Below are positions 1-6,025 of a DNA stretch of 6,025 bases, piece after piece. The DNA lies in the IMG/VR virus record IMGVR_UViG_2695420792_000002; one strand, written 5' to 3'. Under the pieces are notes generated by a model. The model worked only from the letters and a program-made list of their open reading frames with translations. It made no database searches and had not been told where the DNA came from. This stretch comes from a virus. Taxonomy: Duplodnaviria > Heunggongvirae > Uroviricota > Caudoviricetes. The translations under genes and the position numbers were made by a program. Within the stretch, counting starts at the first letter, position 1. Each line of letters opens with the position of its first letter.

Positions 1-249
1 TTCGGGGGAAAAACGAGTATTTTTAGTCATCCTGTTTACCTCTTTCTCAGGAAGTTTAGTCTCCAGGATTCCCGGGGCGGTTCAGATATCACCACTATCC
101 AGTCGTTACGCCATACCTCCGATCTTGATACCGGAGAGATGTATGTCTTCCTGTGTAAGGTTGAAGCCTGGGCGGTGAATATTGGCTGCCACCTGACTAT
201 TCCGCAGAGCTGCGAGTTCCAGCTGCTCCGCGACAAGCAGGAGGCGTAA
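1..249 (+). CDS. 3' part of a nin-region ORF whose start lies upstream of the window; hypothetical protein in the position of ybcN in DLP12
   Basis: Frame 1 is open from base 1 to TAA at 247-249 (82 sense codons). Its stop overlaps the ninE ATG as TAATG, preceded by GGAGG. The listed minus-strand ORF 36..284 is its antisense shadow. Product identity not recognised from sequence. Confidence 0.5.
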   Translation, partial: FGGKTSIFSHPVYLFLRKFSLQDSRGGSDITTIQSLRHTSDLDTGEMYVFLCKVEAWAVNIGCHLTIPQSCEFQLLRDKQEA

Positions 250-419
250 TGGCTACACCGCTTATTCGTGTCATGAACGGACACATCTACAGAGTATCAA
301 ATCGTCGTAAGCGTAAGCCTGAGCTGAAGCCATCCGAAATACCAACACTGCTCGGATATACCGCTAGCCTGGTTGATAAAAAATGGTTGCGACTGGCAGC
401 AAGGAGGAATCATGGCTGA
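249..419 (+). CDS. ninE: NinE-family small protein (56 aa)
   Basis: ATG at 249 with GGAGG upstream; translation [56 protein letters not shown] matches my recollection of DLP12 NinE. Below the size cutoff of the ORF track. Overlaps ybcO start by 8 nt. Confidence 0.7.
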   Translation: MATPLIRVMNGHIYRVSNRRKRKPELKPSEIPTLLGYTASLVDKKWLRLAARRNHG

Positions 420-702
420 TTTGAGAAAAGCAGCGCGTGGTCGGGAATGCCAGGTAAGAATCCCTGGCGTATGTAATGGCAATTCTGAAACGTCTGTACT
501 GGCACATATCCGGCTGGCTGGATTGTGCGGTACCGGTATCAAACCGCCAGACCTGATTGCCACCATTGCATGTTCTGCCTGCCACGACGAAATCGACCGC
601 CGCACACATTTTGTCGATGCTGCATATGCAAAAGAATGCGCGCTGGAAGGTATGGCGAGAACACAGGTTATCTGGCTGAAAGAGGGGGTTATTAAGGCGT
701 GA
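412..702 (+). CDS. ybcO: YbcO-like DUF1364 protein (96 aa), Cys-rich, putative metal-binding nuclease
   Basis: AAGGAGG at 401-407 then ATG at 412; translation [23 protein letters not shown]...[11 protein letters not shown]... matches recalled DLP12 YbcO. The track start at 373 (TTG) is an upstream extension with no SD. Confidence 0.8.
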
Positions 703-1061
703 ATACCTACAGTATCACATTACCCTGGCCTCCGAGCAATAATCGCTATTACCGCCATAATCGCGGGCGCACGCACGTCAGTGCAGAGGGGCAGGCATAC
801 CGCGATAACGTCGCCCGAATCATTAAAAGCGCAATGCTGGATATCGGCCTGGCTATGCCTGTGAAAATCCGCATTGAGTGCCACATGCCGGATCGCCGTC
901 GCCGTGACCTGGATAATCTGCAAAAAGCCGCTTTTGACGCACTCACTAAAGCAGGTTTCTGGCTGGATGATGCTCAGGTCGTTGATTACCGCGTTGTGAA
1001 GATGCCTGTTACCAAAGGTGGGAGGCTGGAACTGACCATCACCGAAATGGGGAATGAATGA
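699..1061 (+). CDS. rusA: Holliday junction resolvase RusA (crossover junction endodeoxyribonuclease), 120 aa
   Basis: Translation [37 protein letters not shown]... is the RusA family signature. GTG start at 699 overlaps the ybcO stop (GTGA), indicating translational coupling. Confidence 0.9.
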
Positions 1062-1198
1062 TGTTTGAGTTTAATATAGCAGAACTTCTTCGCCACCGCT
1101 GGGGGCGTCTGCGCTTATATCGTTTCCCCGGTTCTGTTTTGACCGATTACCGAATACTGAAGAATTACGCCAAAACCCTGACAGGAGCAGGAGTATGA
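1058..1198 (+). CDS. ylcG: YlcG-like small protein (46 aa)
   Basis: ATG at 1058 overlaps the rusA stop (ATGA). Translation [46 protein letters not shown] matches recalled DLP12 YlcG. Absent from the ORF track because it is short. Confidence 0.6.
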
Positions 1199-1283
1199 AG
1201 TCAGAGATAACAATCAACTAATACTGTTTTATTGATTTTTGCTTGTAATTGGCGTTCTGGTCTGATTTTTGTGGAGTAAGTTG

Positions 1284-1667
1284 ATGCGTGATATTCAGAT
1301 GGTTCTTGAGCGTTGGGGAGCGTGGGCGGCTAATAATCATGAAGATGTGACCTGGTCGTCCATTGCCGCCGGTTTTAAGGGATTAATTCCTTCAAAAGTA
1401 AAATCTCGCCCGCAATGTTGTGACGATGACGCGATGATCATTTGCGGGTGCATGGCCCGTCTGAAAAAGAACAACAGCGATTTGCACGATTTATTAGTAG
1501 ATTATTATGTAGTTGGTATGACATTCATGTCACTGGCAGGTAAGCATTGCTGCTCTGATGGTTATATCGGGAAAAGGTTACAGAAGGCTGAGGGCATAAT
1601 TGAAGGGATGTTAATGGCATTAGATATCCGGTTAGAGATGGATATCGTTGTTAATAACTCTAATTAA
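1284..1667 (+). CDS. quuD: Late-gene antiterminator Q homolog (127 aa), QuuD-like
   Basis: GGAG at 1273-1276 then ATG at 1284; translation [26 protein letters not shown]...[16 protein letters not shown]... matches recalled DLP12 QuuD. The track start at 1269 is a TTG extension. Position immediately upstream of the lysis cassette fits Q. Confidence 0.8.
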
Positions 1668-1684
1668 TACGCCAATTATTTACT

Positions 1685-1718
1685 AAAAGTTATTAAAAAT
1701 GGGGCGTTGAAACGCCCC
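1685..1718 (-). terminator. Candidate intrinsic terminator for minus-strand transcripts (distal end of the porin 3' UTR)
   Basis: Perfect hairpin GGGGCG-TTGAAA-CGCCCC at 1701-1718. On the minus strand it is followed by AUUUUUAAUAACUUUU (complement of 1685-1700). Confidence 0.35.
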
Positions 1719-1745
1719 CAAAAATAAAGGGTAATATATAACAGA
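1707..1745 (+). promoter_or_regulatory. Speculative late promoter (pR'-like) and Q-utilisation region just downstream of Q
   Basis: TTGAAA at 1707-1712 and TAATAT at 1732-1737 (19-bp spacer), about 40-70 bp past the Q stop, the distance at which lambdoid phages place pR'. Weak match, position-based. Confidence 0.2.
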
Positions 1746-1806
1746 AGGTTTGTATAGTTAGAAGCAAGGTTGTGCTTCTAAAGGAAGTGGCTTGAGGGAG
1801 CCACTT

Positions 1807-1847
1807 ATATGTTGGGGAGGCAAAGCCTCCCACAACATATCTTTTAG
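1807..1847 (+). terminator. Candidate intrinsic terminator for plus-strand transcripts (tR'-like); also sits immediately 3' of the porin stop
   Basis: 15-bp stem with one bulge: ATATGTTGGGGAGGC / AAA loop / GCCTCCC(A)CAACATAT at 1807-1840, followed on the plus strand by CTTTTAG. Confidence 0.35.
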
Positions 1848-1855
1848 TAATCAAA

Positions 1856-2938
1856 TTAGAACTGGTAAACCATACCTACAGCAACGATATCATCGGTAGC
1901 AACGCCAGATGCTTTCGTGAAATCGCTCTTATCAATCAGGTTGATTTTGTAGTCAACAAAAGTGGACATATTTTTGTTGAAGTAATAGGTTGCACCTACA
2001 TCAACATATTCAACCAGGTCCTGATCACCCCAAACACCCAAGTCTTTTCCTTTAGAATGCAGGTAAGCAACGGATGGACGCAGGCCGAAGTCGAACTGAT
2101 ATTGTGCAACAGCTTCGAAGTTTTGTGCTTTGTTGGCAATATGGTTATTACCAAAAACAGTCATGTTCTGGGTTTCAGAATAGGTGGTGGCCAGATAGAT
2201 GTTGTTCGCATCATATTTCAGACCAGCTGCCCATACTTCAGCATTTTGACCAGAAGCATTCAGACCGTTGTTACCGTAGATAACCTGATTATTAGTGCGA
2301 TCAGATTTAGCATAGGTTGCACCTACACCGAATCCTTCATACTCATAAGTAGTGGAGAAACCGAAACCATCACCATTAGCTTCAGTTACGTCAGTGCGGT
2401 CATTTTTACCCTGATACTGAGCAGCAAAGTTCAGACCATCAACCAGACCAAAGAAGTCGTTGTTACGATAAGTTGCAACACCAGTGGTGCGACCAGTCAT
2501 GAACACATCTGTTTGAGTCCAAGTGTCACCACCGAATTCTGGCAGGACGTCAGTCCACGCACCGATGTCGTATGCTACACCGTAGTTACGGCCGTAATCG
2601 ATGGAGCCGTAGTCACCGAATTTCAGGCCAGCGAAGGCAAGACGGGTTTTATCTTTGGAGGAACCTTGAGATTCAGCGCGGTTGCCTTTGAATTCATATT
2701 CCCACTGACCGAAACCAGTCAGTTGATCGTTGATTTGGGTTTCACCTTTGAAGCCAAGACGGGCATAAGTAGTATCACCATCATCTGCATCATTAGAGGA
2801 GAAGTAGTGCTTAGCATTAACTTTCCCGTACAGATCCAGCTTGTTACTGTCTTTATTATAAATTTCAGCTGCCTGAGCAGACATCGCCATCAGTACTGAT
2901 GCAGCTACAGCAGAAATTGCCACTGTTAATTTTTTCAT
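1856..2938 (-). CDS. nmpC: OmpC/OmpF/PhoE-family general porin (360 aa), NmpC / Lc-type prophage porin, apparently intact
   Basis: Translation begins [23 protein letters not shown] (signal peptide) then [16 protein letters not shown]..., with the C-terminal ...VGMVYQF typical of 16-strand porins. Matches recalled NmpC N-terminal region. No internal stop or IS interruption across the full-length ORF. Confidence 0.9.
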
Positions 2939-3300
2939 CGTGAGCCCTTTTTTTTGAACTATTATTAAAAAATGATGTCACTGCGCGATAAATATTCATC
3001 TAATCAATGTGATTATTTCAAGATGTAAGTTTTAGTTTCTCATTTAATTTGTGAAGTAGATCTCTATTTTTATCTGAACTTTTTCTATCGAAACCTATTT
3101 ATGGCTCTTATTTGAACAAAAATAAACCTATTAGCTAATTTATATTAATGGCTGTTATTTATGGGGGGTCTATAATTCGATGGTTTAATTTAAATTAACT
3201 AAAAATAACGCCGGAAATTATTTATTGGTTATTTGTTGAGGTTTTCTTATGTATTTGTGGTGGTGTTTTGAACACTCGGTAGCATTCTCATAAATATCAT
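2939..3300 (-). promoter_or_regulatory. AT-rich upstream region of the porin gene (promoter and probable regulator-binding sites)
   Basis: Strongly AT-rich, ORF-free sequence immediately 5' of the porin start codon on the minus strand, with many A/T tracts. Boundaries are approximate. Confidence 0.3.
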
Positions 3301-3526
3301 TCAGTGGTTTACGTACGTAAAAAATTGGTTATGCTGTTAAGAGTGGTTACTTCGTCACACAGCTTAAACCCGCCGTCGAGCTGGTTTTTCCATTTTTTGA
3401 GTCTCGATATTAGCTGATAACTCAATACCTGAGTTATTCACTGACTCCGAGTCTGTTACGTTTCTGCTTTTTTGCGATACGTTGTATTCCCTCAATTTAC
3501 ACCCGCTTTGTCTGCGAGGTGGGGTT

Positions 3527-3742
3527 ATGAAATCCATGGATAAGTTAACAACGGGTGTCGCCTATGGCACCTCAGCAGGTAGTGCCGGTTACTGGTTTTT
3601 ACAGCTGCTCGATAAAGTCACGCCCTCACAGTGGGCAGCAATAGGTGTGCTGGGTAGCCTGGTATTTGGCCTGCTGACGTACCTGACAAACCTTTATTTC
3701 AAGATTAAAGAAGATAAGCGCAAGGCTGCGAGAGGTGAATAA
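3527..3742 (+). CDS. essD: Phage-21-type class II holin (pinholin S21 homolog), 71 aa, with dual-start motif
   Basis: GAGGTGGGG then ATG at 3527; translation [71 protein letters not shown] closely resembles S21. Met1 and Met4 give the antiholin/holin dual start. The track start at 3482 is a TTG extension. Confidence 0.9.
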
Positions 3743-4239
3743 TGCCTCCATCATTACGAAAAGCCGTTGCTGCTGCTATTGGTGGCGGAGCAATTGCTAT
3801 AGCATCAGTGTTAATCACTGGCCCAAGTGGTAACGATGGTCTGGAAGGTGTCAGCTACATACCATACAAAGATATTGTTGGTGTATGGACCGTATGTCAC
3901 GGGCATACAGGAAAAGACATCATGCTCGGTAAAACGTATACCAAAGCAGAATGCAAAGCACTCTTGAATAAAGACCTTGCCACTGTCGCCAGACAAATTA
4001 ACCCATACATCGAAGTCGATATACCGGAAACAACGCGCGGCGCTCTTTACTCATTCGTTTACAACGTGGGTGCTGGCAATTTCAGAACATCGACGCTTCT
4101 TCGCAAAATAAACCAGGGCGATATCAAAGGCGCATGTGATCAGTTACGTCGCTGGACATATGCTGGCGGTAAGCAATGGAAAGGTCTCATGACTCGTCGT
4201 GAGATTGAGCGTGAAATCTGTTTGTGGGGTCAGCAATGA
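3742..4239 (+). CDS. rrrD: SAR endolysin (phage-21 R-type lysozyme, T4-lysozyme-like, GH24), 165 aa
   Basis: ATG overlaps the holin stop (TAATG). N-terminal Gly/Ala-rich weakly hydrophobic segment [20 protein letters not shown] (signal-anchor-release domain), followed by the E...D...T catalytic region ([24 protein letters not shown]). Confidence 0.9.
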
Positions 4240-4697
4240 ACAGAGTAACCGCGATTATCTCCGCTCTGGTTATCTGCATCATCGTCTGCCTGTCATGGGC
4301 TGTTAATCATTACCGTGATAACGCCATTACCTATAAAGCCCAGCGCGACAAAAATGCCAAAGAACTGAAGCTGGCGAACGCGGCAATTACTGACATGCAG
4401 ATGCGTCAGCGTGATGTTGCTGCGCTCGATGCAAAATACACGAAGGAGTTAGCTGATGCGAAAGCTGAAAATGATGCTCTGCGTGATGATGTTGCCGCTG
4501 GTCGTCGTCGGTTGCACATCAAAGCAGTCTGTCAGTCAGTGCGTGAAGCCACCACCGCCTCCGGCGTGGATAATGCAGCCTCCCCCCGACTGGCAGACAC
4601 CGCTGAACAGGATTATTTCACCCTCAGAGAGAGGCTGATCACTATGCAAAAACAACTGGAAGGAACCCAGAAGTATATTAATGAGCAGTGCAGATAG
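4236..4697 (+). CDS. rzpD: Rz inner-membrane spanin (i-spanin), 153 aa
   Basis: ATG at 4236 overlaps the endolysin stop (ATGA). N-terminal transmembrane helix ([20 protein letters not shown]) followed by a charged coiled-coil-like periplasmic domain. The track start at 4224 is an upstream extension. Confidence 0.85.
4456..4638 (+). CDS. rzoD: Rz1 outer-membrane lipoprotein spanin (o-spanin), 60 aa, fully embedded in the +1 frame of Rz
   Basis: AGGAG at 4443-4447 then ATG at 4456; lipobox-like LVVVGC with Cys20; proline-rich mature part ([15 protein letters not shown]). Entirely inside Rz in another frame, the classic Rz/Rz1 architecture. Confidence 0.85.
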
Positions 4698-4728
4698 AGC
4701 TGCCCATATCGATGGGCAACTCATGCAA

Positions 4729-5022
4729 TTATTGTGAGCAATACACACGCGCTTCCAGCGGAGTATAAATGCCTAAAGTAATAAAACCGAGCAATCCATT
4801 TACGAATGTTTGCTGGGTTTCTGTTTTAACAACATTTTCTGCGCCGCCACAAATTTTGGCTGCATCAACAGTTTTCTCCTGTCCAATTCCCGAAACGAAG
4901 AAGTGATGGGTGATGGTTTCCTTTGGTGTTACTGCTGTCGGTTTGTTTCCAACAGTAAACGTCTGTTGAGCACATCCTGTAATAAGCATTGCCAGAGCGG
5001 CAGAAAACAACATTTTTTTCAT
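4729..5022 (-). CDS. bor: Bor lipoprotein (serum-resistance / Iss-family outer-membrane lipoprotein), 97 aa
   Basis: Translation from the ATG at 5022: MKKMLFSAALAMLITGCAQQTFTVGNKPTAV... with lipobox LITGC. Matches recalled lambda Bor. The track start at 5070 is an upstream extension. Confidence 0.85.
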   Translation of the reverse strand: MKKMLFSAALAMLITGCAQQTFTVGNKPTAVTPKETITHHFFVSGIGQEKTVDAAKICGGAENVVKTETQQTFVNGLLGFITLGIYTPLEARVYCSQ

Positions 5023-5222
5023 CTTATTATCCTGCATTGTTAAAAACGGCAGAATCCTATGTGACAACAATTAAACGATAGTTAAATGGATTGATGAAAA
5101 TTAAAACTATATAGGTGTACGCTCAGACTATTGGAGGAAGTTGGGGACACTCAGAATCCTGTGGAATGAAATAAACCGGTCTATCCGTCTATTACCCTTT
5201 TAGCTGCGCTGTATCGTCGCCG

Positions 5223-5287
5223 TATTCCCGCATTAACCATGACCGTAGCCCGACGGGGAATTCCTTCTGCGTGAGTGTGCGGGAATA
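5223..5287. repeat. Perfect 10-bp inverted repeat (TATTCCCGCA / TGCGGGAATA) flanking a 45-bp spacer in ORF-free DNA
   Basis: Read directly: 5223-5232 TATTCCCGCA and 5278-5287 TGCGGGAATA are exact reverse complements. The spacer contains a GAATTC palindrome. Confidence 0.5.
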
Positions 5288-5384
5288 ATCAAAAACGATG
5301 CACACCGGGTTTTACTGTGCTGACAGACGCAGGGTTACCCTCATAGTCGCTTTTCCGGTGCGATGGTGGAAGAAACCGGGATGT

Positions 5385-5579
5385 TCATCCATCATCACTT
5401 TGGATTGATGTATATGCTCTCTTTTCTGACGTTAGTCTCCGACGGCAGGCTTCAATGACCCAGGCTGAGAAATTCCCAGACCCTTTTTGCTCAAGAGCGA
5501 TGTTAATTTGTTCAATCATTTGGTTAGGAAAGCGGATGTTGCGGGTTGTTGTTCTGCGGGTTTTGTTCTTCGTTGACAT
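5385..5579 (-). CDS. ylcI: Small basic DUF3950 / YlcI-like protein (64 aa), function unknown
   Basis: Translation MSTKNKTRRTTTRNIRFPNQMIEQINIALEQKGSGNFSAWVIEACRRRLTSEKRAYTSIQSDDG resembles the small conserved protein encoded next to cos in lambda-like phages (my recollection of YlcI). Start codon preceded by AGG. Transcribed divergently from the terminase. Confidence 0.6.
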   Translation of the reverse strand: MSTKNKTRRTTTRNIRFPNQMIEQINIALEQKGSGNFSAWVIEACRRRLTSEKRAYTSIQSDDG

Positions 5580-5743
5580 GAGGTTGCCCCGTATTCAGTG
5601 TCGCTGATTTGTATTGTCTGAAGTTGTTTTTACGTTAAGTTGATGCAGATCAATTAATACGATACCTGCGTCATAATTGATTATTTGACGTGGTTTGATG
5701 GCGTAGATGCACGTTGTGACATATAGATGATAATTATTATCAT

Positions 5744-5778
5744 TTTGCGGGTCCTTTCCGGCGATCCGACAGGTTACG
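5744..5778. other. cos right-end flank including the probable cosQ region
   Basis: TTTGCGGGTCCTTTCCGGCGATCCGACAGGTTACG immediately 5' of cosN matches my recollection of the lambda genome right end. Confidence 0.6.
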
Positions 5779-5790
5779 GGGCGGCGACCT
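5779..5790. other. cosN, the 12-nt cohesive-end sequence GGGCGGCGACCT (terminase nicking site)
   Basis: Exact lambda cohesive-end sequence GGGCGGCGACCT, flanked by lambda-like left-end sequence (CGCGGGTTTTCGCTATTTATGAAAATTTTCCGG). Confidence 0.85.
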
Positions 5791-5942
5791 CGCGGGTTTT
5801 CGCTATTTATGAAAATTTTCCGGTTTAAGGCGTTTCCGTTCTTCTTCGTCGTAACTTAATGTTTTTATTTAAAATACCCCCTGAAAAGAAAGGAAACGAC
5901 AGGTGCTGAAAACGAGCTTTTGGGCCTCTGTCGTTTCCTTTC
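5791..5942. promoter_or_regulatory. cosB: terminase small-subunit binding sites R3, R2 and R1 with an intervening AT-rich IHF-like site
   Basis: CGTTTCC motifs: R3 at about 5831-5848 (CGTTTCCGTTCTTCTTCG); R2 and R1 form a perfect 15-bp inverted repeat GAAAGGAAACGACAG (5888-5902) / CTGTCGTTTCCTTTC (5928-5942); AT-rich TAACTTAATGTTTTTATTTAAAATA between R3 and R2. Confidence 0.75.
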
Positions 5943-5967
5943 TCTGTTTTTGGCCGTGGAATGAACA

Positions 5968-6025
5968 ATGGAAGTCAACAAAAAGCAGCTGGCTGACATT
6001 TTCGGTGCGAGTATCCGTACCATTC
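5968..6025 (+). CDS. nu1: Terminase small subunit Nu1, N-terminal 19 codons only (continues beyond the window)
   Basis: ATG at 5968; translation MEVNKKQLADIFGASIRTI is identical to the lambda gpNu1 N-terminus as I recall it; located just downstream of cosB. Confidence 0.85.
   Translation, partial: MEVNKKQLADIFGASIRTI

Follow-up and report, generated by a model that had tools for sequence, protein, structure and literature searches.

The window, the whole 6,025-nucleotide (nt) stretch of DNA that we analysed, is a standard lambdoid right arm with nin, Q, lysis and bor genes, followed by cos and then by the start of Nu1. The genes that precede cos are as follows.

249–419: ninE
412–702: ybcO, positioned as in locus L001 of Escherichia coli strain Z1323HEC0011; its start in the open reading frame (ORF) listing is TTG 373
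699–1061: rusA
1058–1198: ylcG
about 1284–1667: Q, of the quuD type
1856–2938, minus strand: intact 360-amino-acid porin of the nmpC/lc type, between Q and the holin gene; annotated as OmpC/OmpD in relatives
about 3527–3742: holin
3742–4239: endolysin
4236–4697: Rz, positioned as in L001; its start in the ORF listing is GTG 4224
4456–4638: Rz1
about 4729–5022, minus strand: bor/iss
5385–5579, minus strand: ylcI-like gene (DUF3950), the final gene before the right end of the virion genome; an ORF with a Pfam PF13132 match, annotated as YlcI/YnfO in relatives

The position of the ylcI-like gene next to cos is conserved, recurring in 10 loci. The interval of about 310 bp that separates it from bor (5071–5384) has no ORF of at least 40 amino acids; the same interval holds ybcV and ybcW in the K-12 prophage DLP12 and lambdap78/p79 in lambda. 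The porin gene is intact here, whereas its K-12 DLP12 homologue is broken by IS5. At the other end of the window, positions 1–84 are the end of an IS3-family insertion sequence (IS629/IS1203-like) inserted inside ybcN, with the inverted-repeat end TGAACCGCCCCGGG reading leftwards from 84 and the start of transposase orfA (MTKNTRFSPE) running from 31 on the minus strand. The IS/ybcN junction (window 61–120) found no exact match among GTDB species representatives, and window 1–400 found no single-piece match in 5,426 complete E. coli genomes.

The cos site consists of cosQ, cosN and cosB (PMC4669245). The nicking site cosN is about 22 bp long and is separated from cosB by I2, lambda bp 18–50, an AT-rich static bend that sets the cosN–cosB distance (PMC4856287). 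cosB occupies about 120 bp in the order R3–I1–R2–R1, with R2 inverted (PMC4669245); R3 lies at lambda bp 50–65, R2 and R1 have one 16-bp sequence in common, and lambda Nu1 begins at bp 191 (PMC9026076). To place these elements, the last 360 bp and the first 247 bp of the lambda record NC_001416 were joined and aligned to window 5418–6025, and cosQ was positioned by conservation across lambda, N15 and phi80. The resulting features are listed below.

5749–5755, plus strand: cosQ, GGGTCCT, identical in lambda, N15 and phi80; the subsite needed for packaging termination
5769–5790, no strand assigned: cosN, nicking site of about 22 bp, 22 of 22 positions matching lambda 48493–48502 plus bp 1–12
5778/5779 on the top strand and 5790/5791 on the bottom strand: cosN nicks, leaving 12-nt 5′ overhangs GGGCGGCGACCT
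5796–5828, plus strand: I2 spacer, lambda bp 18–50, identical to lambda in sequence and length
5828–5843, plus strand: R3, the critical binding site for the terminase small subunit TerS (gpNu1), lambda bp 50–65, identical to lambda (coordinates from PMC9026076)
about 5850–5880 (approximate), no strand assigned: I1, AT-rich, putative IHF-binding and bending segment between R3 and R2, lambda-identical except at 5851 and 5880
5887–5902, minus strand: R2, AGAAAGGAAACGACAG, TerS binding site inverted relative to R3 and R1, unchanged from lambda
5928–5943, plus strand: R1, CTGTCGTTTCCTTTCT, accessory TerS binding site, identical to lambda
5851, 5880, 5912, 5922 and 5953: cosB substitutions relative to lambda, at bp 73 (A>G), 102 (T>C), 134, 145 and 176, respectively
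5968–6025, plus strand: start of Nu1, encoding TerS, with its ATG at 5968; the 58 nt to the window end correspond to lambda 191–247

The alignment to the joined lambda ends is collinear over 608 nt, with 17 substitutions and 1 internal indel (about 97% identity), and places lambda bp 1 at window 5779. A lambda-type cohesive end had been predicted at this very position, and GGGCGGCGACCT at 5779–5790 on the plus strand is indeed the lambda cohesive end without mismatch; the cos site annotation of the DE3 record covers the same 12 bases. Even with one mismatch allowed, the window contains no other match to this 12-mer, with about 0.01 matches expected by chance, as estimated from 200 dinucleotide-preserving shuffles. 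The stretch 5764–5850 matches lambda 48488–48502 and bp 1–72 with no mismatch, and the exact 72 bp after the nick comprise the right half of cosN, I2 and R3. The original prediction of a complete cos at 5779–5942 was right that a complete lambda-type site is present, but its limits were too narrow: it left out the left half of cosN (5769–5778) and cosQ (5749–5755), both of which are intact, and the whole site spans about 5749–5943. The accompanying proposal that the prophage is permuted relative to the virion, its right end (bor and the ylcI-like gene) joined to its left end (Nu1), agrees with the contiguous run of bor, ylcI-like gene, cos and Nu1 around the position of lambda bp 1. Joined ends are the expected arrangement for an integrated or circular lambdoid genome.

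The offset of cosQ from the nick is equal in the window, lambda, N15 and phi80, and the phi80 record annotates the corresponding region as cosQ. In lambda the subsite lies at bp 48473–48479. Two nearby bases differ from lambda, 5747 (A>G) just before cosQ and 5762 (T>C; lambda 48486) between cosQ and cosN, and phi80 has the same base as the window at each. A highly conserved element of 7 bp (PMC4669245), cosQ together with the left half of cosN makes the site competent for termination as well as for initiation.

Within cosB, the cosN–R3 distance is exactly that of lambda, and the elements follow in the order R3–I1–R2–R1 with R2 inverted, as in a lambda-type cosB. The lambda alignment recovers the predicted succession of R3, an AT-rich segment, R2 and R1. 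The R3 core, CGTTTCCGTTCT at 5831–5842, recurs in R1 (92%) and, in inverted form, in R2; a repeat finder independently reports R3/R1 as a direct repeat, CGTTTCC(G/T)TTCT, at 5831–5842 and 5932–5943, and R3/R2 as an inverted one. R2 and R1 had been described as a perfect 15-bp inverted repeat. The repeat is perfect, but it is 16 bp long, R2 being the reverse complement of R1 over all 16 bp and R1 ending at 5943 rather than 5942; when mismatches are allowed, the arms reach 26 nt at 85% complementarity. Folded as single-stranded DNA, the R2–R1 segment reaches −19.4 kcal/mol against −7.2 ± 2.0 for shuffled sequences (z = −6.2), a value that simply restates the inverted repeat, the R elements being known to act as duplex protein-binding sites. 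A promoter and terminator scan of the window did not call the R2/R1 hairpin terminator-like, and an Rfam search of the window gave no match. The putative IHF site appears to be inherited, since 5852–5879 is identical to lambda. IHF consensus matches lie on the minus strand at 5852–5864 (2 mismatches) and 5857–5869 (1 mismatch), in a permissive scan that gave 106 matches in the window against 79 expected and is not significant by itself.

Compared with lambda NC_001416 (48473–48502 plus 1–166), the window thus has the same elements in the same order, spacing and orientation, with cosQ, cosN, I2, R3, R2 and R1 identical, and differs by several further substitutions upstream of cosQ. Between 5764 and the window end there are 5 substitutions and 1 indel, none of them in cosN, I2, R3, R2, R1 or the Nu1 coding start. 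The indel is a G at lambda bp 138, in the R2–R1 spacer (window 5915/5916), that is present in NC_001416 and missing from PV340536, KT232076 and the DE3 record NC_042057; all 14 of the 14 aligned relatives also have no such base. With three lambda/DE3 records and 14 relatives lacking this G, the R2–R1 spacing of the window equals that of resequenced lambda, and the extra base reflects either variation between strains or something peculiar to NC_001416. A real 1-bp deletion in the spacer of the window was rejected on the evidence of the three other lambda/DE3 records.

Translation of the visible part of Nu1 gives MEVNKKQLADIFGASIRTI, with all 19 codons as in lambda, and the predicted identity to lambda extends over all 58 nt visible. 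Its ATG corresponds to lambda bp 191, or to bp 190 by direct count, the window lacking the reference G at bp 138. The window ends within the recognition helix (residues 17–24), which is cut at residue 19. In a chromosomal relative that is 100% identical over 85–6025, the full Nu1 matches lambda gpNu1 at 179 of 181 residues, with residues 1–60 (the DNA-binding domain) and the recognition helix identical. Taken together, the cos site and its cognate small terminase are predicted to have lambda specificity.

The mechanism established for lambda would carry over to this site by sequence identity. The large terminase subunit gpA (TerL), anchored on cosN at 5769–5790, would introduce nicks 12 bp apart to give the 5′ overhang GGGCGGCGACCT; terminase would stay on the cosB/Nu1 end, and DNA would be pumped into the prohead rightwards, past the right edge of the window, until packaging is ended by the cosQ and cosN of the next cos on the concatemer. 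In lambda, packaging takes cosN and cosB to start and a second, downstream cosQ and cosN to finish (PMC4669245), and termination needs the cosQ, cosN and I2 of that downstream cos (PMC4669245, PMC4856287). Helper-packaging experiments have used two tandem cos sites, in dilysogens (PMC4669245). The suggestion that an intact cos would let a helper package the element is accordingly incomplete: the cos is intact, but a second cos or excision is also needed. Because starting and finishing need two cos sites, a lone chromosomal cos would be cut and would yield no normal virion; for normal virions to form, the element would have to excise and multimerise, or another cos would have to lie about a genome length downstream.

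To place the site among known phages, we searched 5560–6025 by megablast against 50,697 phage records. The cos was found in 95 of them at a coverage of at least 80%, nearly all from lambda-like coliphages. The best phage match is PhiR34_1 (PV340559, listed host E. coli MG1655), identical to the window over 5744–6025, from cosQ through the Nu1 start, and 98.1% identical over 85–6025. It has the same right arm as the window (ybcN-ninE-ybcO-rusA-ylcG-Q-porin-S-R-Rz-bor-ylcI-like-cos), and after cos come Nu1, A, W, B, Nu3, D and E, with a complete Nu1-A-W-B-C-D-E set. Unlike the window, PhiR34_1 has no IS in ybcN, and two differences separate the sequences upstream of cosQ (at 5723, and an extra T at about 5743). 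PhiR34_1 is a complete, plaque-forming phage, whereas the element in the window is known from its right arm and cos only. Four other phages, PhiR26_1, PhiR42_1, Turner and 2H10, are 98–99% identical over the cos region.

DLP12 (qsr′) of K-12 shares this layout as well (ybcN-ninE-ybcO-rusA-ylcG-quuD-nmpC-essD-rrrD-rzpD-borD-...-ylcI-cos-nohD). Over the 326 nt around cos it departs from the window at about 9 positions, among them one in R3 (C>T at lambda bp 53) and the base immediately before cosQ; IS5 interrupts its nmpC, and ybcV and ybcW are additional genes. The locations differ too: argU for K-12 DLP12, and ybhC/bioA (att-lambda) for the closest relatives of the window. The cos/nu1 region of K-12 DLP12 works once recombined into lambda (PMC3945230). 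Phage 21, N15 and phage-inducible chromosomal islands (PICIs) share cosQ and cosN with the window, and 21 and N15 also I2, but their cosB and TerS/Rpp are of other specificity, in contrast to the lambda-specific cosB seen here (PMC4669245, PMC9026076).

Judged by its sequence, the cos in the window almost certainly belongs to a DLP12 / PA-2 / PhiR34_1-type lambdoid prophage that has lambda packaging specificity. That it resembles cos by chance, or is a look-alike without function, is excluded by a lambda match that runs for 608 nt at about 97% identity and takes in every subsite, and by a cohesive-end 12-mer expected only 0.01 times. There is hardly any likelihood that the site belongs to a PICI or another hitcher that hijacks the terminase of a lambdoid helper. 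Such a reading draws on the cosQ and cosN of E. coli PICIs, which are nearly identical to those of lambda (PMC9026076, PMC6739421). However, a PICI cos has no phage cosB R elements and is followed by rpp rather than Nu1 (PMC9026076), whereas the window has R3, I1, R2 and R1 as in lambda and then the lambda Nu1 start, all after a full nin/Q/lysis/bor arm. A PICI-type cos was rejected on the presence of the cosB R elements and the Nu1 start.

On whether the prophage is intact, the evidence is more evenly balanced. The cos DNA site would very probably be functional, because the plaque-forming PhiR34_1 shares this allele all the way from cosQ into Nu1; counting against this, the module adjoins an IS3-family element at 1–84, a hint that its surroundings are decaying or rich in IS elements. 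We judge the window's own element about as likely to be defective as not, and we give the same even weight to a relic cos in a defective DLP12-like cryptic prophage, in which the site is intact, the terminase large subunit and head genes have been lost and self-packaging would not occur. The only importance left to a relic site would be that terminase from a superinfecting lambdoid phage could act on it and that, being a hot spot of recombination, it would let incoming phages acquire the lysis/cos/Nu1 module. This possibility refines the lambdoid-prophage explanation with respect to the state of the prophage and leaves the identity of the site the same. Among the complete genomes examined, Z1323HEC0011 and TUM3755 alone match the window at 100% over 85–6025, and both favour this possibility. 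Their copy of the module belongs to a defective prophage flanked by ybhC and ybhB/bioA: in both, TerL breaks off after 243 bp and runs into tail-fibre remnants (L001 26404–27602 in Z1323HEC0011), and integrase and Gam are truncated in Z1323HEC0011 (the TUM3755 stretch fetched stops short of those genes). In locus L014, also 100% identical, Nu1 is cut at 44 amino acids and is followed by OspG-kinase (NleH-like) and Cif effector genes and then by an int/xis pair (7461–9612). The interruption of ybcN by an IS in the window and the cryptic state of K-12 DLP12, which has the same layout, point the same way, as do lambda–DLP12 recombinants, which are viable and cluster at cos (PMC3945230). Against it, complete Nu1-A-W-B-C-D-E sets follow in strain 442/2 (99.8% identical), in locus L008 (99.9% identical over 1424–6025 and 100% over 5700–6025) and in PhiR34_1, with its identical cos and 98.1% overall identity; moreover, ybcN is non-essential, and an IS there does not inactivate the phage. 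Near-identical relatives are thus both defective and complete, so the identity of the module does not predict the state of what lies downstream. Where deletions do follow, the same right-arm/cos module runs into different ones in different strains, as in L014 compared with Z1323HEC0011 and TUM3755.

A more speculative extension, which we consider improbable, is that the cos–Nu1 joint, should it sit in a defective remnant as it does in the 100%-identical relatives at ybhC/bioA, is kept because it is used, either by the terminase of a superinfecting or co-resident lambdoid phage cutting it or by the resulting break promoting recombination. Its sole specific support is the known stimulation of lambda–DLP12 recombination at cos (PMC3945230). 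The role documented for the homologous region of K-12 DLP12 is distinct from helper packaging: the DLP12 cos lies inside the longest lambda–DLP12 homology, half of the recombination junctions adjoin cos, and recombinants with DLP12 R, Rz or nu1 are viable (PMC3945230). If it were true, packaging could start rightwards into bio-uvrB-moa in a cos-driven event, lateral-transduction-like or of the docL type, and a double-strand break could help to pass the lysis/bor/cos/Nu1 module to incoming phages.

The lambdoid prophage cos described here is an already known, ordinary element that the original prediction recognized correctly, and it raises no new biological question. Most complete E. coli genomes, 3,982 out of 5,426, have a lambda-type cos at a coverage of at least 80%, with a median of two matching places per genome with any match; in 783 records the best match reaches at least 99% identity. 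A GTDB scan with the window-specific cosB allele gave a single context, L022, an unrelated one that matches over 609 nt at 96.9%. The site is useful chiefly for annotation: with it, the virion ends of this prophage type can be placed at 5778/5779 and 5790/5791, lambda packaging specificity can be assigned to the element, and the late-gene right arm can be delimited from the morphogenesis genes. When genomes are scanned, an intact cos is no guide to a live prophage, identical modules adjoining both complete and deleted head-gene regions.

Two further prophages, L005 and L011 (about 9757–9880, corresponding to window 5700–5823), match the window without a difference over cosQ, cosN and most of I2, up to a switch point at lambda bp 45/46, just short of R3, beyond which their cosB is unrelated. 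Their cos thus shows a swap of the kind that sets phage 21, N15 and PICIs apart from the window. L011 combines the other cosB with a 169-amino-acid TerS of the Nu1 family; the gene calls for L005 include no Nu1. The switch point is a clean mosaic joint between shared cutting and termination signals and the specificity module.
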